Below, one piece after another: positions 7,831 to 24,648 of a DNA stretch of 34,458 bases. The DNA is from a virus (lineage: Duplodnaviria; Caudoviricetes), in IMG/VR virus record IMGVR_UViG_3300017707_000280, positions 1-34,458 of that record; one strand, 5' to 3'. Position numbers and translations under genes: made by a program. A model generated the notes under the pieces. That model searched no databases. It was not told where the DNA came from and saw only the letters and a list, made by a program, of their open reading frames with translations. How positions within the stretch are numbered: the first letter of the stretch is position 1; every line of letters begins with the position of its first letter.

Positions 7831-9642
7831 ATGGCTGACGAATTTGATGTAAGCAATATTCCTCTGGCTGAGGATAAGACAGCCCCCTCAAATATAGATA
7901 TGAGTAAATCTATTATGAGTCCTGAATATCGTCAGCGAGATGCTTTCGGTGGTCAAGAGTTAGGTGGATTAATCGTTGGAGCACCACTTCCATTTCCTCT
8001 TAGTACAGTAGGTTCTGGTATTGGTGGCTTTGGAGGTGAACTTTATGAACAAGTTTCTAAAGGCGAAACTCCATCCTTATCATTGGCAACACAAGCTGGA
8101 ATTGAAGAAGCCGCATGGGATGCTGGTGGAAATCTTGTTCTCAAAGGATTTGGAAAAGTTTTACGCTTTGGTGCTGACAAACTTGGCTTCACTTCTAGTA
8201 ATGCACCTGATGCAAACAAAGCCGCAGAAGAATTTTTACAAAGATACAACTCATCATTGCCAGCAAGTCAGAGAACAGGTGCAAACTTATTTTCTGCTTT
8301 AGAGGGTTTAACCCTTACGCCAGTAACATACGATATTTTTAAAAGAAAAGACAAAGAAATTCAAGATGCCTTGATGACAGGTTCACAAGATATATTGAAG
8401 TCTCTTGTAAAGAGTCCTGAACTTGACATGGCTTTGAGGACAAACACATCTTCACAATTTTCATCTGGTCAAATACTGCAAAATTTTATAAAGCAAGGTG
8501 AAAAATCATTAAGTGATTCAGTTGATTTAATTTATAAAGATATTTTTGCTGACACAACATCTAAAGTCACAACTTTTGGCATTAAATCATTTGCTGACAA
8601 ATTGTTGGCAAACCCTTCTGCCTTAACAAGCGGTCAAAAATCTATTCTTAATGAAATGAAGGTTTTACCAAATGAATTGAATGTTCCCACGCTTCATCAG
8701 ATAAGAAGTCGTTGGCTTGCAGAAAATAGAGACAAATACAATTCTCGTGTTTCTAGCGAGAAGGATAGCCGTGCTTCACAAACAATAAGTGAATTAATTT
8801 CTCAGTTTGATAAGGCTATGGATTATTCTGCTAACACAACTTTAAAAGGTGATACTCTAAAACAATATAGAAATGTAACCAAAACATATAGGCAAGGAAT
8901 TCAAGGTCTTCAAACTGATGCAATACAAGAAGCGTTAACAAAGAATCCAGAAGAAGTCGGTGCATATTTGTTTACGGCTGGGAAAGAAACACCCACTCTT
9001 GATTTGTTTAAGTCTGTGATTGCGGCATCTAATTTGTCAAAAAAACCATCAAATGAAATTATTGATGCTTTGCGATATGGTTATCTTGAAGCGATGGTAA
9101 ACACTCCTGAAAATATGTTGAAATTTGCAAAGAACTTAGAGCAAGACAAGGCTTTTGCAAACACATATAACAGATTGTTTGGCAATACACCACAAGATGC
9201 CGCCATCAAGCAAATGAATGAAGGTGCTAAGTTGGGTCTGGTTGAAGCTAAAGCAATGCCCGGACTCAATTACAGAACAGTTACTTCTGGATTAAATGTA
9301 TTAGCTCCAACAGCCGCAATTGGCACTGGATATTTCTTTTTGCTAAGTCCTGAGCAACAACAAAAAGTAACTGAAAATTTGGGTTCAGCCGCTGTTGTTG
9401 GTGGTTCACTTGTTTTGTCTCAAAGAACATTGGCAAAAGCATTGCTTGACCCTAAAGGCGCAAAAGCAATCAAGTATTTGTCAACAGCAAGAGAAAAATT
9501 AACTTCTGCAACTGCGTTCACCAAACTTGTTGTTGAGCCTTTAACCAACATTATTACTGCTGAAGAAAAAGAACAGTATCCATTTGGTGCGCCATCTGCT
9601 AAAGATGAGTTTGATGTATCAAATGTTCCTTTAAAAAAGTAA
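7831..9642 (+). CDS. Large internal virion / DNA ejection protein
   Basis: GGAGG RBS before ATG 7831; Gly-rich hydrophobic segments near both ends; position. Confidence 0.55.
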   Translation: MADEFDVSNIPLAEDKTAPSNIDMSKSIMSPEYRQRDAFGGQELGGLIVGAPLPFPLSTVGSGIGGFGGELYEQVSKGETPSLSLATQAGIEEAAWDAGGNLVLKGFGKVLRFGADKLGFTSSNAPDANKAAEEFLQRYNSSLPASQRTGANLFSALEGLTLTPVTYDIFKRKDKEIQDALMTGSQDILKSLVKSPELDMALRTNTSSQFSSGQILQNFIKQGEKSLSDSVDLIYKDIFADTTSKVTTFGIKSFADKLLANPSALTSGQKSILNEMKVLPNELNVPTLHQIRSRWLAENRDKYNSRVSSEKDSRASQTISELISQFDKAMDYSANTTLKGDTLKQYRNVTKTYRQGIQGLQTDAIQEALTKNPEEVGAYLFTAGKETPTLDLFKSVIAASNLSKKPSNEIIDALRYGYLEAMVNTPENMLKFAKNLEQDKAFANTYNRLFGNTPQDAAIKQMNEGAKLGLVEAKAMPGLNYRTVTSGLNVLAPTAAIGTGYFFLLSPEQQQKVTENLGSAAVVGGSLVLSQRTLAKALLDPKGAKAIKYLSTAREKLTSATAFTKLVVEPLTNIITAEEKEQYPFGAPSAKDEFDVSNVPLKK

Positions 9643-9651
9643 GGAAACAAA

Positions 9652-10350
9652 ATTGACCCAATCAGCATTTGCCTCCTTGCGGCAGGACTTGTCAAACAGA
9701 TTCAAGCTGGCTGTGAACTTTATAAACAAGCAAAAGAATCTTTTGTTGAAATTAAAGCCACTGCTGATGAAGTTATTGCCATTGGTAAAGAAGTCCATGG
9801 ATTTTGGGGTCAGCTTCTTGCGTTCTTTGGTAGCAAGCCAAAGCCTCAAGTTGCAAATCCTGTGGCTAAGTCTAAGAAATCTGTTTACAAGTCTGTTGAC
9901 GAAACTCAAGTCAAAATTGACATTGTTTCTAACCTGACATCGTTTTTCAAACTTCAAGAACAACTTGCGGCACACATAAGGGAAGAAGAAGAAAAGAGTC
10001 TGACAGTCTATGACCCTGACCAGAACCACATGGAAGCGGCTTTAAAGAGGGTGATGGCACAGCAAGAGATGGATGCGTTAGTAGTGCAGATTCGTGAGTG
10101 TATGGTGTATCAAAGCCCTCCTGAGATGGGCGCACTGTACTCAGAGGTCTTCAGCATGAAGGACAAGATTGAAGAGGAGCAAACTCAGGCAAGGTTAAGG
10201 CAAGAAGCTATCAAAAGGCAAGAGGTATGGCTACGCAAAGAGGAGGAAAGAAACCTACAAGCAAAGCTAGGAGCAGTAATAGCGACTTCTATATTCCTCC
10301 TGTACCTGTGGCTGTGGCTGTTGTTCGTAAGTCATTGGGGGAAGAAATGA
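9652..10350 (+). CDS. Membrane-anchored coiled-coil protein, probably initiated at ATT (about 232 aa)
   Basis: The frame of the tracked 9862-10350 ORF stays open back to 9643; AAGGA RBS 6 nt before ATT-GAC-CCA-ATC (IDPISICLLAAG...); C-terminal TM helix. Confidence 0.65.
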   Translation: MDPISICLLAAGLVKQIQAGCELYKQAKESFVEIKATADEVIAIGKEVHGFWGQLLAFFGSKPKPQVANPVAKSKKSVYKSVDETQVKIDIVSNLTSFFKLQEQLAAHIREEEEKSLTVYDPDQNHMEAALKRVMAQQEMDALVVQIRECMVYQSPPEMGALYSEVFSMKDKIEEEQTQARLRQEAIKRQEVWLRKEEERNLQAKLGAVIATSIFLLYLWLWLLFVSHWGKK

Positions 10351-11779: not shown

Positions 11780-11874
11780 TCGTCAAAGAAGTGGAGGAAG
11801 ACCCATATACCGATTATGAGTGCTCCTCCACCAATTGCCAAAACTGTGATTAGGCCAAGTACATTTTCAATCAT
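11776..11874 (-). CDS. 32-aa single-pass membrane peptide
   Basis: Read manually: MIENVLGLITVLAIGGGALIIGIWVFLHFFDD; start overlaps upstream stop, stop overlaps endolysin stop. Confidence 0.6.
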   Translation of the reverse strand: MIENVLGLITVLAIGGGALIIGIWVFLHFFDD

Positions 11875-12211
11875 GTGTAACTCTCCATTCACGCTCGTTG
11901 CGTCCTGATTTAGACTTGACTGTGCGTCCTGTCAACTCAATCAAGTTCATGTTGGACAACTCGTTTAAACGCCTTGCAACCTGATTAGACTCTAACCCAC
12001 TATGTTGGGCAATTCCATCTTTACCAAGCGAGCCATGAGCCTTTAAAGCGTCCACAATCATGCAAAAATGTTTAGAAGCCAAGTCCTTTGCAGAATCAGC
12101 GGCTTCATAACTGGTTGTTGGGTCAGATGTTCTCACCCGATTAAAGATAGGCAAGTCAAAGAACTTCTTTACTTCACCGCCAAAATGTATATCGTCAAGT
12201 TTGCTCATCAT
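11867..12211 (-). CDS. Winged-helix DNA-binding protein
   Basis: RTSDPTTSYEAA motif followed by wHTH (QVARRLNEL...LIELTG...SGRNEREW); AGGAG RBS. Confidence 0.7.
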   Translation of the reverse strand: MMSKLDDIHFGGEVKKFFDLPIFNRVRTSDPTTSYEAADSAKDLASKHFCMIVDALKAHGSLGKDGIAQHSGLESNQVARRLNELSNMNLIELTGRTVKSKSGRNEREWRVTHD

Positions 12212-12521: not shown

Positions 12522-13142
12522 TTACACCTTAATTTCATTGAGTTTTTTCACTTTGTCATCCACTTCTACAAGAAACTGGACAACCTCTTTTTCGAGTTCT
12601 GCAATATACAAGTCATTGCGCTCGATTCTTTTGACAAGCAGTTGTAGGTGCGCTGGCATTCGTGGGTCGAAACTCACAAAGTCGCACCAACTTCTGTTTG
12701 CACACGCCATTTGCCACTGCATCTGGTCGTAATACTTCTTTGCAGGTTCATCGCCAAGAATAGTGTCGATATGGGTTGAAGTGTTAGGACACTTGATCTC
12801 TAAGCATCCATCGTCACCAATCAGACCGTCAGGAGAGGCGGCAGACATAGCAATTCTTGGATGGTCAATAGCACCTACCTGATCGACTGTATTGCCTGTT
12901 TTAACCTCGTATGCGGCTCTGGCAAAGGGTTCGTTCTCGACACCCCACTCCATTGCGGCATTTGAGTATGACTCACCTACTTGGTTAGTCATGCGCTCGA
13001 CTACCAACTGCGCCATGTAGTTTGCTCTACTGGTGCTGTAGCCTGTCTTTGTCTTGGCAACAATGTCAGAGATACGAGAAGCAGTGGCTTTTCCACAACG
13101 CTGTGCAAACCATTCAGGAGAACCTTGTTCAATATCACTCAT
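12522..13142 (-). CDS. Lambda-exonuclease / YqaJ family recombination nuclease
   Basis: [36 protein letters not shown] motifs. Confidence 0.92.
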
Positions 13143-13366
13143 GCTTCCCTCGCTATCAACATATCGTCTGCCATTTCATATGCAAGAGGCGCAATATATT
13201 TATCACCACACTTAACACACCCACCATCGTGAGCGTCAGCGGCAATTAAACCTTGCATAGCCTTTGCCGCAAAGTAGTCCCGCAATGTCATGCCACTGTG
13301 ACCACTGCTTACCCAATCGTTAAGCGTTACTTCGTTACCACTTGGAAATGCTGGTGGGTTGTTCAT
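13139..13366 (-). CDS. Conserved phage protein (PAFP...GMTLRDYFAAKAMQG)
   Basis: Widespread small phage-family motif; AAGGAG RBS. Confidence 0.8.
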   Translation of the reverse strand: MNNPPAFPSGNEVTLNDWVSSGHSGMTLRDYFAAKAMQGLIAADAHDGGCVKCGDKYIAPLAYEMADDMLIAREA

Positions 13367-20381: not shown

Positions 20382-21032
20382 TTATTCTGTCACTGTTACA
20401 GGTGTTTCAGCCTCTACAGGCTTAACCGTAGGCAAATAACACCATTCAGGCACACGGGCATAGTCTCCGTCTCTCATAGGCATGATGATGCCTACAAAAT
20501 GTAAATCAGCCCCTATTGACACAATGCCGCTATCCGTACCCCTTTGCTTGATAGATACATTGCAGTTATTAGATTTTGACCCTCTTAAATCGCTATCGGC
20601 ATCATAAAATGCCATTAAATAAGAGATATTGTATGAACTAGGCTTTATTTCATCGTCTTTTACCATCAAAGGGATAATTCTATCGGTATTAGGAAAACAA
20701 CCCTCTACAGCACTGAATACACGGGTAGAATTATCTGGCTCGATAACTGTAATTTTTTCACCCTCTACTGTAAAGTGTAGAGTTTCATTACCTTTTTTAC
20801 CTGTAGCAGATAATGCTTTAACAGCATCTAAGGGAATAATTACCTTTGATTGATTTTCTACATAGTCACTATCAATCAACAAACGGCCTAACATATGCCC
20901 ATTTGTAGACTCTAAGTATGTACCTCTGTTATTTTGCACCACATGGATACCCTGCAAATAATATCGAATGTCTTTTATTGCACTGAATCTAGATAATGCT
21001 TTTAACTGTTTCCGTTGAATTGTGAATTTCAT
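20382..21032 (-). CDS. Truncated DNA polymerase III beta-clamp-like protein (216 aa)
   Basis: DIRYYLQGIHV, ESTNGHML, VIIP, EGCFPNTDRIIP, IIMPMR correspond to DnaN motifs. Confidence 0.75.
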   Translation of the reverse strand: MKFTIQRKQLKALSRFSAIKDIRYYLQGIHVVQNNRGTYLESTNGHMLGRLLIDSDYVENQSKVIIPLDAVKALSATGKKGNETLHFTVEGEKITVIEPDNSTRVFSAVEGCFPNTDRIIPLMVKDDEIKPSSYNISYLMAFYDADSDLRGSKSNNCNVSIKQRGTDSGIVSIGADLHFVGIIMPMRDGDYARVPEWCYLPTVKPVEAETPVTVTE

Positions 21033-21107
21033 TTTTAACACCTATTGAAAGCCTAGGAAAATGCCTAGGTGATAGGATACTGTTACCAATACCCTATACC
21101 CTAGTTT

Positions 21108-21191
21108 TTAGCCCCATACCCCTATGATTAGCATAAGACAAATAAACCCTGTAAAGCTTACCCATATCACAATTTTGTCGATTGATTCCAT
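21108..21191 (-). CDS. 27-aa membrane peptide
   Basis: MESIDKIVIWVSFTGFICLMLIIGVWG; TAATG coupling. Confidence 0.5.
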   Translation of the reverse strand: MESIDKIVIWVSFTGFICLMLIIGVWG

Positions 21192-21391
21192 TATTGTGCC
21201 TTTGTAATATTGCAATATTCTACCCATTCATCATGCGTCATTGCATAATTAACTGAATAGAAAACATCATTTAGGGTTAAATCTTGCTCATATTTAATAA
21301 ATGCTTCAGTTGCCCCATTGGGTAAACCATTTGATAAATATGGCCTATGAGACACAATACGACCAGTTGACAATTTAATATCTTTTTTCAT
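21191..21391 (-). CDS. Hypothetical protein
   Basis: ATAGGTG RBS before ATG 21391. Confidence 0.65.
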   Translation of the reverse strand: MKKDIKLSTGRIVSHRPYLSNGLPNGATEAFIKYEQDLTLNDVFYSVNYAMTHDEWVEYCNITKAQ

Positions 21392-21473
21392 TTTAACACC
21401 TATCAAAAAAGTTAATGAAATAGCACATTGTGACAATGTACAGGTAAGCCCCGAAGGGCTTAACTCTAAACTG

Positions 21474-21671
21474 TCAGTTAGAAATTTCCTCTATTGATTG
21501 TATGTCGGTGCAGATACACACAATGCGTTTAAATTTAGGCGAACCCGCTAAGGTATGCACAATAACATTTCTGCCAGTGTGTGTGTAAGACTCTACACGC
21601 ATGGGTTGACCATGCACTTTAATTATTTGGCCAATTGTGTATTGACCTTTAGGGATAAATGCAAATTTCAT
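21474..21671 (-). CDS. Hypothetical protein, first gene of leftward early operon
   Basis: AAGG RBS before ATG 21671. Confidence 0.6.
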   Translation of the reverse strand: MKFAFIPKGQYTIGQIIKVHGQPMRVESYTHTGRNVIVHTLAGSPKFKRIVCICTDIQSIEEISN

Positions 21672-21717
21672 ATCAACGCCTTTTAAGTTTACTGTCCAAC
21701 ATCGGACATTAAATACT

Positions 21718-21735
21718 ATGCAGTTATCGTGCCAG
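21718..21735 (-). promoter_or_regulatory. Sigma54 (RpoN) -24/-12 promoter-like site
   Basis: Minus strand CTGGCACGATAACTGCAT matches TGGCACG-N4-TTGCW with GG-N10-GC spacing, about 47 bp before ATG 21671. Confidence 0.65.
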
Positions 21736-21788
21736 TTTTGCAGTTTCAGCAAGTACGGTACATAGAATGAGAGTGCTCACTAACAATG

Positions 21789-21845
21789 CGCACCAAGATA
21801 GTGCAACTCATTTCACATTATAAAATCATGCACCTAATTGGTGAT
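21789..21845. promoter_or_regulatory. Two NtrC-type enhancer sites
   Basis: CGCACCAAGATAGTGCA (21789-21805) and TGCACCTAATTGGTGAT (21829-21845) versus consensus TGCACCA-N3-TGGTGCA. Confidence 0.55.
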
Positions 21846-21901
21846 GTTAGTAACCACTCTGCACCAACTTATCCCATATAAATAACCTATCAATAACCTG
21901 T

Positions 21902-21914
21902 TATCAATAGTTTG
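21902..21914 (+). promoter_or_regulatory. IHF consensus site
   Basis: TATCAATAGTTTG fits WATCAANNNNTTR exactly, with AT-rich sequence upstream. Confidence 0.45.
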
Positions 21915-21933
21915 CATTTAATTGTGCTTGTGC

Positions 21934-22024
21934 ATATGCGAATGATTCTCATTTAGGGTGCATCGAGCCTATATGCGAATCGTTCTCATTACCATCTGCT
22001 TACTGATACCGCATTATCATTATC
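21934..22024. promoter_or_regulatory. Fur-box-like sites (two 20-bp near-identical copies plus a third partial)
   Basis: ATATGCGAATGATTCTCATT (21934-21953), ATATGCGAATCGTTCTCATT (21971-21990), ATTATCATTATC (22013-22024). Confidence 0.55.
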
Positions 22025-22038
22025 AATAGTGCAATGTT

Positions 22039-22115
22039 AGTAAGTACTTACTGGGTAGGTTAGTTAGTGCTCACTTCTATGTGTGTGAGTGCTTACTTGT
22101 AAGTGAGTGCTCACT
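22039..22115. promoter_or_regulatory. Cluster of four SlmA-binding-site-like palindromes
   Basis: GTAAGTACTTAC, GTTAGTGCTCAC, GTGAGTGCTTAC, GTGAGTGCTCAC versus SlmA consensus GTGAGTACTCAC. Confidence 0.6.
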
Positions 22116-22508
22116 TTGATAGGGGGGAGGGGGTATGCGTGGTGTTGTAAATATTTGTGAACCCTCCTCCGCACACGAAAAGCTAAATCAGACTGTACGA
22201 CACAAAAGGGTAATATGGATTAGGGGAGAAGACGGAATAGGAAAGTCACCCGTGAGTGGGTGAATCCTTTTTAAAGGAGAGCCTCTCGTTTATACTAAGT
22301 TAGAGAAGGTTGTCAGTCCTTACTCTCCACGCTACTAGCCCCGTTCAAGTCTGTGCTTTACTGAAGAACTACATGGTTCACTACGTTTATCCTACTTGGT
22401 CGGCTCAACCGCATAGAGGGGTGGGTGATGCCCCCGTTTGTCTCCACTATACAAGATTCTGATTCTCGTGTAAAGTGTGCGCTAACTTCCCATACTGTTG
22501 GACAAAAG

Positions 22509-22898
22509 ATGAATGTAGTAGATGCACTCCCTAATAACCTAAAAAAGAAGGGTCGCCCAAAAGGTTCTGGGAAGATGACCCTCAGCAAGTATGCAGACAA
22601 TCCCACTGCTCTCATACTGCCTAAGACTGAACAACAGAAAATCAAAGAACTTAAAGACCTCCTGATAAACAGTGCAGGTTCTAATGTCGTCTACAAAGCA
22701 GTCGAGATTGCAATGAATGATGAACACCCTGCACAGATGGCGGCACTCAAACTCTGTATGGACAGAATGCTTCCCGTTTCACTATTTGAAAAAGAAGGAA
22801 AACAGCGTTCCGCTGTCAACATCACCATCTCAGGCATAGGTGGTGTAGTCATTGGTGAAAACACTATAGATGCAGAAGATGTAGAGGCAAAAGAATGA
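22509..22898 (+). CDS. terS: Terminase small subunit
   Basis: KKKGRPKGS N-terminus, helical core (QMAALKLCMDR), position upstream of TerL. Confidence 0.7.
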   Translation: MNVVDALPNNLKKKGRPKGSGKMTLSKYADNPTALILPKTEQQKIKELKDLLINSAGSNVVYKAVEIAMNDEHPAQMAALKLCMDRMLPVSLFEKEGKQRSAVNITISGIGGVVIGENTIDAEDVEAKE

Positions 22899-23389
22899 GT
22901 GATTGGTTAAATGAGTATGAAAAATTCTCTGCGACTCCTTGGAGTCCTACCACTTTAAAACCAGCGGAAGAACAGCAGTTTCGCAGTTGGTTACAAGGAA
23001 CTCAACTGTTTAACTCTATTAAGTCAGACATTGCGGCTGAACAAAAGATGCCTGTCGATAAGTTAGACAACCAGAGAGTTACAGAGATGATTCTTGAATC
23101 TCCTGACTATGATTACAGGGGAGCATGGAAAGCTGGGATAAAAGAAACTATTAGTCCTTATGACAATAGACCGCACTTCCCATCGTCTACCAAGACAGGA
23201 CAAATGCTAAAAGACCCAACCCATCCAACAGCATGGAAAGAATTTTTTATGCGTCAGTATGGGACTGACCCTGATGCAATGGGACTTGACACTGTAGAAA
23301 AAGCAAAAAACTGGAGTCTTTCAAAACAAAAGGTAGACACCCCGTTTTACAAAGACCCATTCTCAATCCCAGACTACACAATCGAATAA
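22895..23389 (+). CDS. Hypothetical protein between terS and terL
   Basis: Coupled at both ends; DYDYRGAWK and HPTAWKE motifs. Confidence 0.75.
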   Translation: MSDWLNEYEKFSATPWSPTTLKPAEEQQFRSWLQGTQLFNSIKSDIAAEQKMPVDKLDNQRVTEMILESPDYDYRGAWKAGIKETISPYDNRPHFPSSTKTGQMLKDPTHPTAWKEFFMRQYGTDPDAMGLDTVEKAKNWSLSKQKVDTPFYKDPFSIPDYTIE

Positions 23390-24648
23390 TGTCAGACCTA
23401 AACTTCAGTCTCCTCCCTTGGCAACAAGAAGTCTTTGCTGATAAAACAAGGTTTAAAGTCATTGCCGCTGGCAGACGTTGCGGTAAGTCTAGACTCTCAG
23501 CAATTACCCTGTTAATTGAGGGATTGCAATGTACTGCTGGCTCGGCTGTGCTGTATGTTGCGCCTACCAATGGTCAGGCAAGACAGATTATTTGGGATGT
23601 ATTGATGGAGTTGGGGCGTGAAGTCATTCAGGCAAGTCACATCAATAATATGGATATAACCCTGATAAACGGAGCAAAAATCTATGTTAGAGGTGCAGAT
23701 CGCCCAGATACTCTGCGAGGAGTGTCACTCACCTACGCTGTGCTTGACGAGGTTGCCGACATCAAACCAGAAGCATGGGAGCAAGTTATTCGAGCTTCGT
23801 TGTCAGACAAAAAAGGTCGGGCAATGTTTATCGGCACTCCCAAGGGTCGTAACTTTTTCTATGACATTTTTAGACTCGGAATGTCAGAAGAAGACTCAGA
23901 TTGGAAATCTTGGCATTTCACCACCAAAGATAACCCTCTGATCGACCCTACTGAAATCGAGAGCGCAAAGAAAACCCTATCTAGCTTTGCTTTCAAGCAA
24001 GAGTATATGGCTTCTTTCGACAATGCTGGTAGTGACGTTTTTAAAGAGGAGTGGCTGAAATATGGAGAAGAACCTGATTATGGCTCGTACTACATTGCTG
24101 TCGATTTGGCAGGGTTTGAAGAAGTGGCTAAACAAGCGGCTAATTCTAAGAAAAGACTAGACCAGACCGCAATTGCTGTGGTCAAGGTGACAGATGAAGG
24201 TAAGTGGTTTGTCAAAGAGATTGTCTATGGGCGTTGGGACATTCGGGAAACTGCGGCTACTATCTTGCTAAAGATGCGTGAATACCGTCCTTTGAGCATT
24301 GGAATTGAGAGGGGAGCGTTAAAAAACGCAGTTTTACCGTATTTGAGTGACTTAATGCGGAAAAATAATGTATATTCACACATAGTTGACTTGACGCATG
24401 GCAACAGGAAAAAGACTGACAGAATTATCTGGAGTCTCCAAGGAAGGTTTGAGCATGGGCGTATTGTGCTGAACTCTGAGGAAGATTGGGATGAATTCAA
24501 AGATCAACTCTTGATGTTCCCAGCCCAAGGTGTTCACGATGACCTACCCGATGCCCTATCTTATATTGACCAACTGGCTGTTACATCTTACTTTGAAGAT
24601 GCAGATGAAGATGAGTGGCAACCAATAGACATAATTTCGGGAGTGTAA
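23389..24648 (+). CDS. terL: Terminase large subunit
   Basis: Walker A GRRCGKS, Walker B VLDE, GTP coupling motif, RNase H-like VDLA and HDDLPD. Confidence 0.95.
   Translation: MSDLNFSLLPWQQEVFADKTRFKVIAAGRRCGKSRLSAITLLIEGLQCTAGSAVLYVAPTNGQARQIIWDVLMELGREVIQASHINNMDITLINGAKIYVRGADRPDTLRGVSLTYAVLDEVADIKPEAWEQVIRASLSDKKGRAMFIGTPKGRNFFYDIFRLGMSEEDSDWKSWHFTTKDNPLIDPTEIESAKKTLSSFAFKQEYMASFDNAGSDVFKEEWLKYGEEPDYGSYYIAVDLAGFEEVAKQAANSKKRLDQTAIAVVKVTDEGKWFVKEIVYGRWDIRETAATILLKMREYRPLSIGIERGALKNAVLPYLSDLMRKNNVYSHIVDLTHGNRKKTDRIIWSLQGRFEHGRIVLNSEEDWDEFKDQLLMFPAQGVHDDLPDALSYIDQLAVTSYFEDADEDEWQPIDIISGV

Follow-up and report, generated by a model that had tools for sequence, protein, structure and literature searches.

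Why should a phage carry, within some 420 noncoding bases, what appear to be binding sites for several unrelated host proteins? A sequence-only reading of this DNA had proposed that the block might be a landing pad for host proteins that (a) ratchets the genome into the cell, (b) titrates global regulators once the genome has been amplified, or (c) integrates nitrogen, iron and cell-cycle status into early expression. We examined the block in related phages and in the window, by which we mean the whole stretch of DNA analysed, a virus record that is complete, circular and 34,458 bases long.

The block and its predicted sites

Pfam and PHROG scans showed that the genome encodes a large terminase subunit (TerL), an SU10-type portal and adaptor, capsid, lysis, Sak/RecE/SSB and replication genes, and no integrase was recognised by these scans. 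Freshwater metagenomes made up the majority of the sequencing runs containing this phage, about 1300 stored stretches matched the terL patterns of the window, and the phage group is widespread in freshwater. A blastn search with 21000-23400 returned no cultured close relative, and the best cultured-phage matches to TerL and capsid were below 60%.

The block is flanked by a leftward operon, which starts at 21671, and by a rightward packaging operon (Table 1). As the sequence-only reading had stated, it holds no credible open reading frame (ORF), since none of at least 50 aa was found between 21753 and 22309. The leftward operon runs to about 19849 (about 1.9 kb), where it meets a converging operon. 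Genes downstream of the leftward promoter were hypervariable among relatives, with 239 ORFs falling into 123 clusters, and a family scan of 49 proteins, 48 of them cluster representatives, identified the representative of one 12-member cluster as an ArdC anti-restriction protein, as expected for early DNA. This supports the description of these genes as early-type. A beta-clamp-like gene (20382-21032) lies in the same operon, and only some relatives have one. A long hairpin at 21431-21476, between the first two leftward genes, is a possible processing or stability element.

On the other side, the family encoded at 22509-22898 was conserved upstream of terL in relatives. The earlier assignment of this gene as terS stands as far as position and conservation go, but the name itself found no profile or fold match (model pTM 0.28). 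A 164-aa ORF without family lies between it and terL (22895-23389) and is present in only some relatives. The reading had also recognised no cognate regulators in the genome, and our scans agree: proteins of the TetR, Fur, NtrC, sigma and IclR families were absent among 62 ORFs scanned with Pfam and PHROG and among 12 scanned with NCBIfam, barring weak or minor regulator matches in two small ORFs (11867-12211 and 13139-13366).

Table 1. Coordinates of predicted features in and around the block
Feature	Position	Strand	Basis or remark
First gene of leftward early-type operon	21474..21671	-	65 aa, no family
Hairpin at predicted sigma54 transcription start	21693..21708	-	two-sided change in 4/5 consensus pairs, 13 sequences
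Sigma54-type -24/-12 element, leftward	21720..21734	-	7/1000 shuffles
SlmA-type site 1	21769..21780	.	pattern scan and shuffles
NtrC-type site 1	21789..21805	.	pattern scan and shuffles
IclR-type palindrome, weak copy	21811..21825	.	15-base palindrome scan
NtrC-type site 2	21829..21845	.	pattern scan and shuffles
Degenerate SlmA-type site between NtrC sites 2 and 3	21846..21857	.	3 mismatches
NtrC-type site 3	21860..21876	.	4 mismatches; 31 bases from site 2
IHF consensus match	21902..21914	+	weak alone; outside promoter-enhancer loop; consensus per PMC2709558
Fur-type box 1	21937..21951	.	pattern scan and shuffles
Conserved boundary element	21957..21969	+	90-258 bases left of G-run in relatives
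Fur-type box 2	21974..21988	.	pattern scan and shuffles
Weak Fur-like hexamer repeats (third box)	22006..22030	.	6/19 mismatches
Four SlmA-type sites (22040, 22063, 22085, 22103)	22040..22114	.	pattern scan and shuffles
G-run	22122..22133	+	almost unchanged across relatives whose TerL is 48-100% identical
Conserved AT core, C-rich tract and A-run right of G-run	22150..22183	+	sequence logo; part of G-run signal; conservation extends down to 48% TerL identity
Probable terminase small subunit (terS)	22509..22898	+	position and conservation only
Terminase large subunit	23389..24648	+	family profile scans

Motif counts in the 450 bases left of the G-run (21672-22121) were compared with those in 1000 dinucleotide shuffles, and the other 34 kb of the genome served as a second control. 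Five SlmA-type sites were found at up to two mismatches (shuffle mean 0.02, 0/1000 shuffles; one site elsewhere), together with two NtrC-type sites at up to three mismatches (0/1000; none elsewhere), two Fur-type 15-mers at up to two mismatches (0/1000; one elsewhere) and one sigma54 -24/-12 element (one elsewhere). The motifs therefore lay where the sequence-only reading had placed them, and those named above scored better than shuffled sequence (0-7/1000). This did not extend to the IHF match, which is weak alone (31/1000 shuffles; four elsewhere in the genome), or to the weak third Fur box; nor did the classical Fur 19-mer match any site in the block at up to five mismatches. Patterns for CRP, FNR, LexA, Pho, matS, parS, XerD and DnaA gave no matches in the block. 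Four elements were added to those first described: the IclR-type palindrome, which reached its count in 44/1000 shuffles, a sixth SlmA-like site, the boundary element and the hairpin. We use the label IclR-type for this 15-base palindrome on the strength of a match upstream of aceA in one Polynucleobacter genome.

The consensus patterns and mismatch limits were our own choice, for which the shuffle counts are uncorrected; recurrence in relatives is therefore the stronger test. Three patterns were checked against sources, namely SlmA (PMC9974302), IHF (PMC2709558) and NtrC (the E. coli glnA record), and the 20 bases around the last SlmA-type site match a published E. coli SlmA site at 17/20 positions (PMC9974302).

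Relatives were collected via terL (80 loci) or via the SlmA-plus-G-run pattern (119 loci). Of 170 anchored loci, 117 had 450 bases upstream, and removal of blocks sharing half their 12-mers left 95. Enrichment was assessed in 44 non-redundant loci, window included, which are unbiased for motifs because they were selected by terL alone. SlmA-type sites numbered 49 against 0.5 in shuffles (25 loci), IclR-type palindromes 44 against 1.0 (26 loci), Fur 27 against 0.9 (15 loci), NtrC 22 against 0.9 (15 loci), DnaA 21 against 0.7 (nine loci), IHF 19 against 1.4 (18 loci), XerD arms 16 against 3.1 (16 loci) and sigma54 elements nine against 0.3 (nine loci). The window's own site types thus recurred 14- to 98-fold over shuffles with their order changing, and site rates were low in the DNA up- and downstream of the block. 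FNR was mildly enriched (8 versus 2.0), LexA was enriched only in the pattern-selected set (8 versus 0.2), and CRP, matS and Pho showed no enrichment. At up to three mismatches SlmA was the commonest host module, present in 34/44 loci and absent from ten. One locus (L074) carried none of the mapped site types. In a locus with TerL identical to that of the window (L001), 2% of 12-mers were shared in the left, promoter half of the block and 25% in the right half. Motifs thus persisted across relatives while order, content and spacers varied. The sites are supported as predicted, host-type binding sites for several unrelated proteins; the array itself is real, conserved in kind and modular.

Some relatives departed further from the window. 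In six loci (L054, L062, L071, L072, L076 and L080) DnaA boxes and a dif-like site replaced SlmA, Fur and NtrC left of the G-run; such layouts could point to an origin or to Xer-based episome handling. Several XerD arms sit in arrangements that we label dif-like. Further recurring palindromes were seen in L109, L121, L014, L030, L034 and L145, comprising a LexA-type element, a 12-14-base AT palindrome and two others; we take the first to be LexA-type and the AT palindrome to be SdhR-type. L074 and L082 share the G-run signal, but upstream of it their DNA is GC-rich and has at most one of the mapped sites, perhaps reflecting a different host.

A predicted promoter half and a cassette zone

The left half has the predicted geometry of a working NtrC/sigma54 promoter. 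The -24 GG and -12 GC are present at the correct spacing in the window, and NtrC-type sites lie 64, 104 and 135 bases from the -24. Among the 44 terL-selected loci the sigma54 element was always on the minus strand, and it was seen in nine loci by the strict pattern and in 29 by the -24 half only. NtrC sites accompanied an intact -12 in 21/22 cases and were found in 3/35 cases without one, the rows of this comparison being related to one another. In 14 of the 22 promoters whose -12 is intact, 64 bases separated the -24 from the centre of the first NtrC site. The commonest NtrC site spacings were 31 (11 times) and 62 (six times), and an SlmA-type site occupied the slot between NtrC sites in relatives too. 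Model (c), the integration of host status into early expression, fits this predicted promoter half. The hairpin at the predicted transcription start may act as a 5' protector.

Other arrangements also occurred. A second promoter group (L111, L142 and L143) had a different spacing, and two of its three members belong to a deeper terL clade. Another promoter type consisted of the -24 half only; the AT-rich tract after it may be a sigma70 extended -10. The number of sigma70-type matches in the region was at chance level (5 versus 5.0). Promoter types were scattered on a quick terL tree, from which 16 of the 95 loci were left out as they had no full terL, and required 14 and 17 changes, with 76 and 395 of 500 shuffles as low. 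This scatter suggests that the promoter module moves between phages by recombination.

The right half is a 165-base cassette zone that extends from the boundary element to the G-run. The boundary element was found in 34/44 terL-selected loci, and in 62/95 loci at a loose limit with doubtful matches included; it is a candidate left end of a short terminal repeat. In the space between it and the G-run, modules of the Fur, SlmA, palindrome and XerD types are exchanged for each other, and an SlmA site starts 15-20 bases left of the G-run in 23/44 loci. The G-run is a candidate packaging or terminus signal. The earlier picture of one uniform landing pad therefore needs dividing: host-type sites do occur throughout, but they fall into two distinct halves, a predicted promoter on the left and a cassette zone on the right. 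We dropped a resemblance of the boundary element to an inverted copy of the G-run, as the likeness was too short. Right of the signal, noncoding DNA at 22180-22500 contains terminator-like hairpins and in many relatives has changed less than the array, with up to 82% of 12-mers shared; it gave no Rfam match and no folding excess over shuffles (z +1.0).

A genome end is likely to lie at or in the block, as the sequence-only reading had supposed. In run X1, which is possibly the source sample, an exact 566-base unitig (21728-22293) had a depth of 1505, about 3.3-fold that of the long exact unitigs, seven of eight of which had depths of 436-501 (the eight being those listed of 280 pieces); its left neighbour had a depth of 591. 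Summed depth bins elsewhere in X1 were equally high (1388 and 2529), and the peak could fit either a short repeat with end pile-up or another strain in the sample with the same block. In runs X2, X4 and X9 other strains confounded the depth, and 6-7% of words were present in RNA runs. In the bin 25-150 bases left of the G-run, contigs started at a rate of 63.8 per 100 kb, compared with 5.8-18.5 in the other 11 bins, an excess of 3.4- to 11-fold that comes from a small sample of nine ends, some of them near-duplicates. Of 14 distinct contigs with a start within 300 bases, three (L005, L066 and L181, the last judged by eye) began at most three bases from the boundary element and the other 11 did not. 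Repeats or strain mixing could also break assemblies at the block.

Host background and candidate functions

The motif set points to a host among the Betaproteobacteria. A related terL was found on only two short binned contigs, L082 and one in G349 (one of 151 genomes), and one of these two showed the same layout with an ArdC-like first gene. No related terL was found in 150 family-level genomes, and no portal match in 401 order-level genomes. In Polynucleobacter, the best NtrC-type matches include positions upstream of glnA and of a P-II operon, Fur-type matches include one upstream of feoAB, and one of the palindrome's four matches precedes aceA; other motif matches were at unrelated genes. 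Each of five candidate host genomes held two to seven Fur-type and five to nine NtrC-type matches.

The distribution of sigma54 was uneven. We found rpoN in 57/151 Polynucleobacter genomes, and ntrC scored above the cut-off in 4/5 genomes tested. All four chromosome-length genomes tested had ntrC and no rpoN match, so NtrC sites there, which were examined in two of them, would act without sigma54, and the phage sigma54 promoter would need an rpoN-bearing host. The two phage promoter types mirror this patchiness, a parallel that is no more than suggestive.

Both Polynucleobacter genomes tested contained slmA, and a betaproteobacterial SlmA retains the helix-turn-helix of the solved SlmA. Chromosome-length coordinates were available for 16 of 41 genomes; over these 16 chromosomes 1/39 SlmA-type matches fell in the terminus half, the matches being partly orthologous and the records assumed to start at the origin. 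In E. coli 0/18 matches lay between 0.94 and 2.05 Mb. A dif pattern matched 1/5 genomes, and chromosome termini were therefore not located directly. SlmA-type patterns showed no enrichment in G001 and its 25 relatives, where the 12 matches examined were mostly in coding DNA, and inspection revealed none in most of 201 order-level genomes. Such counting is insensitive, because even E. coli gave only 7 versus 5 (and 18 versus 12).

Our leading interpretation, held tentatively and at slightly under an even chance, is that the block is a two-part array of host sites at a likely genome end, in which an NtrC/sigma54 promoter is joined to a swappable cassette zone coated by host proteins. What we observed are the sites and the boundary elements, the way in which the sites recur and are reshuffled among relatives, and the link between the -12 and NtrC sites; the remaining steps, we infer, would run as follows. 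The boundary element and the G-run region would delimit a short terminal repeat, and packaging would run rightwards, so that the array end would be packed last and enter first. Phosphorylated NtrC, bound to sites 31-40 bases apart, would activate sigma54 polymerase, and the leftward, probably first-entering genes would then follow host nitrogen status. In the cassette zone, occupancy would outweigh identity: abundant host proteins, SlmA above all, would coat the zone and cap the free DNA end against end-loading nucleases. That end-sensing nucleases such as Shedu exist has been described (PMC13434031). After replication, the five to six SlmA sites per genome may also delocalise SlmA and stall division, which by analogy we regard as a probable side effect. 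The emphasis on occupancy over signalling follows from the exchange of unrelated proteins (Fur, IclR-type, XerD, DnaA and SlmA) in one slot.

That same exchange, which includes XerD, a recombinase, weighs against reading all of the sites as operators of one complex promoter through which nitrogen, iron, carbon and cell-cycle state would time the lytic programme. The left half does show promoter geometry, and NtrC, Fur, IHF, IclR-type proteins, DnaA and LexA all regulate transcription. SlmA can repress a promoter (PMC3573117), and there are precedents for CtrA, LexA and Spo0A, lytic deferment having been proposed for CtrA sites (PMC9437464). The cassette sites, however, lie 200-390 bases from the -24, beyond the enhancer, and the sigma70-type count given above is at chance level. 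We consider such an integrator unlikely, though the most serious of the alternatives. The proposal that the copies made by replication act as a decoy, titrating Fur, NtrC and IclR-type proteins and delocalising SlmA so that uptake genes are released, division is blocked and the burst is larger, is about as unlikely as the main function of the block, if slightly more so. It would explain why SlmA is the commonest host module, and the few matches in the candidate host genomes suit it; in E. coli two plasmid-borne sites in multicopy are enough (PMC3573117, PMC4117426), although the SlmA in those experiments was supplied from a plasmid or cassette. A decoy needs no fixed place, yet the SlmA site keeps its distance from the G-run, which argues against a pure decoy, and the NtrC sites are phased to the promoter. 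By analogy with the plasmid experiments, model (b) is plausible for SlmA.

We think it improbable that host proteins on the entering end pull or hold the DNA during ejection, as in the pause proposed for phage T5. The block lies at a probable leading end with an inward promoter, the T5 injection-stop region has Fur-, LexA- and DnaA-type sites, and anchoring by DnaA has been proposed for T5 (10.1101/866236). About a dozen sites in 0.4 kb could hardly draw in 34 kb, however, the inward operon stops after about 1.9 kb against a converging one, and no A1/A2-like gene was recognised in the Pfam and PHROG scans; model (a), a ratchet for the whole genome, is unlikely. Slightly more improbable still is that the repeats serve phage proteins in packaging or at an origin, or form a structured RNA, with the likeness to host sites incidental. 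We know of no host motif that matches the G-run, which may be a terminase site, and the DnaA boxes and dif-like sites of some relatives recall an origin or episome. The block also folded better than shuffles on both strands (z -3.9 and -3.6), but similar folding on the two strands is what palindromes would be expected to give, and the changing order of the modules makes a common fold unlikely. A search of 20900-23500 against Rfam gave no matches with E up to 1, and we rejected a structured RNA for the block. No cognate phage regulator was found in the family scans, eight distinct host-type motifs recur, and promoters of the expected host regulons carry the same motifs.

Relation to known systems

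Phage control of hosts has mostly been studied through proteins, and the block would be a DNA-only control layer, invisible to gene annotation. If the favoured two-part interpretation is true, an NtrC-gated phage promoter would make early expression of the phage respond to nitrogen limitation in lakes, and the SlmA sites would be a natural counterpart of a division block known from laboratory plasmids. In the literature searched, which covered few subscription papers, no array of SlmA sites in a phage, no phage promoter gated by NtrC and no end array for multiple regulators came to light; the sequence-only reading likewise knew of no description of such an array in this phage type.

Individual elements have parallels. 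Single host regulators at phage promoters are known, with CtrA and, as cited there, LexA and Spo0A (PMC9437464), and Pseudomonas phage YuA has a sigma54 promoter (10.1101/2023.10.13.562163). In these cases, as predicted here, a phage promoter relies on a regulator or the sigma54 of its host; they involve one regulator at promoters, whereas the window has an NtrC enhancer set with other sites in a cassette zone beyond it. E. coli glnAp2-like promoters likewise combine a -24/-12 with paired NtrC sites, 32 bases apart in glnA and 31 here (sites 2-3). The window differs in that its first site is 64 bases from the -24, SlmA- and IclR-type sites lie among the NtrC sites, and the promoter would drive phage early-type genes. 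In E. coli, division is blocked when a multicopy plasmid carries tandem SlmA sites (PMC3573117, PMC4117426). The window resembles chromosomal SlmA sites and those plasmids (PMC9974302, PMC3573117, PMC4117426) in the site itself, its tandem arrangement and a multicopy replicon; its array is natural, on a phage, has four copies in 75 bases and keeps a fixed distance from the G-run.

The closest known system is T5, whose region is likewise noncoding and repeat-rich, has sites for several host proteins and lies in a terminal repeat, as the block of the window is proposed to do. A DnaA box has been published for its injection stop signal, or Repeat Region 3 (NC_005859.1, 9140-10149; 10.1101/866236). 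In the annotated injection stop we found one LexA-type, one DnaA and three Fur-type matches, of two, three and seven, respectively, in the first 40 kb. The main text of that preprint, which treats DnaA, contains no occurrence of Fur, iron or SOS as whole words, and none of LexA (10.1101/866236). The T5 block lies 9-10 kb inside a 10-kb repeat and its order is conserved, whereas that of the window, in a podovirus-type genome of 34 kb, abuts a probable end and is reshuffled between strains. SlmA, NtrC/sigma54 and IclR-type sites are additions of the window, with dif-like sites in relatives, and the T5 region gave no SlmA, NtrC or sigma54 match. Beyond Fur-type repeats the two had no alignable homology, A1/A2 family genes had no match in the 34-kb genome, and the ordered DnaA-box series of T5 has no counterpart in the window block, with no DnaA box there and boxes in 9/44 terL-selected loci. 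By the features tested, the block is similar in kind to T5-type host-factor regions but does not belong among them. When compared with cultured phages, the Fur cassette of the window matched mostly T5-like terminal-repeat regions with weak E-values, and the SlmA and NtrC cassettes gave chance-level matches only, mostly in coding DNA.

A broader proposal, possible but rather unlikely in our estimation, is that phages in general use protein-free arrays of host-factor sites at their genome ends: a cassette locus shaped by recombination that would collect operators for abundant host proteins, cap the entering end, read nitrogen through NtrC/sigma54 and make an SlmA division blocker, with the T5 injection-stop region as a member. 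An old question becomes testable in E. coli K-12, namely whether the T5 injection pause depends on Fur and LexA besides DnaA. The motif set could also help to predict the hosts of uncultured phages, for example hosts with or without sigma54.

A LexA-type box and several Fur-type boxes were observed beside the published DnaA boxes in T5-type injection-stop regions (L224, which is T5, 9411-9707; L221, 204-454; L222, 8926-9390), the phages scanned including polluks and phiR2-01 as well as T5. Three Fur-type boxes were also seen in noncoding DNA after terL, at the end of the record, in the T7-like Roseobacter phage CRP-143 (L223, 1505-1640).
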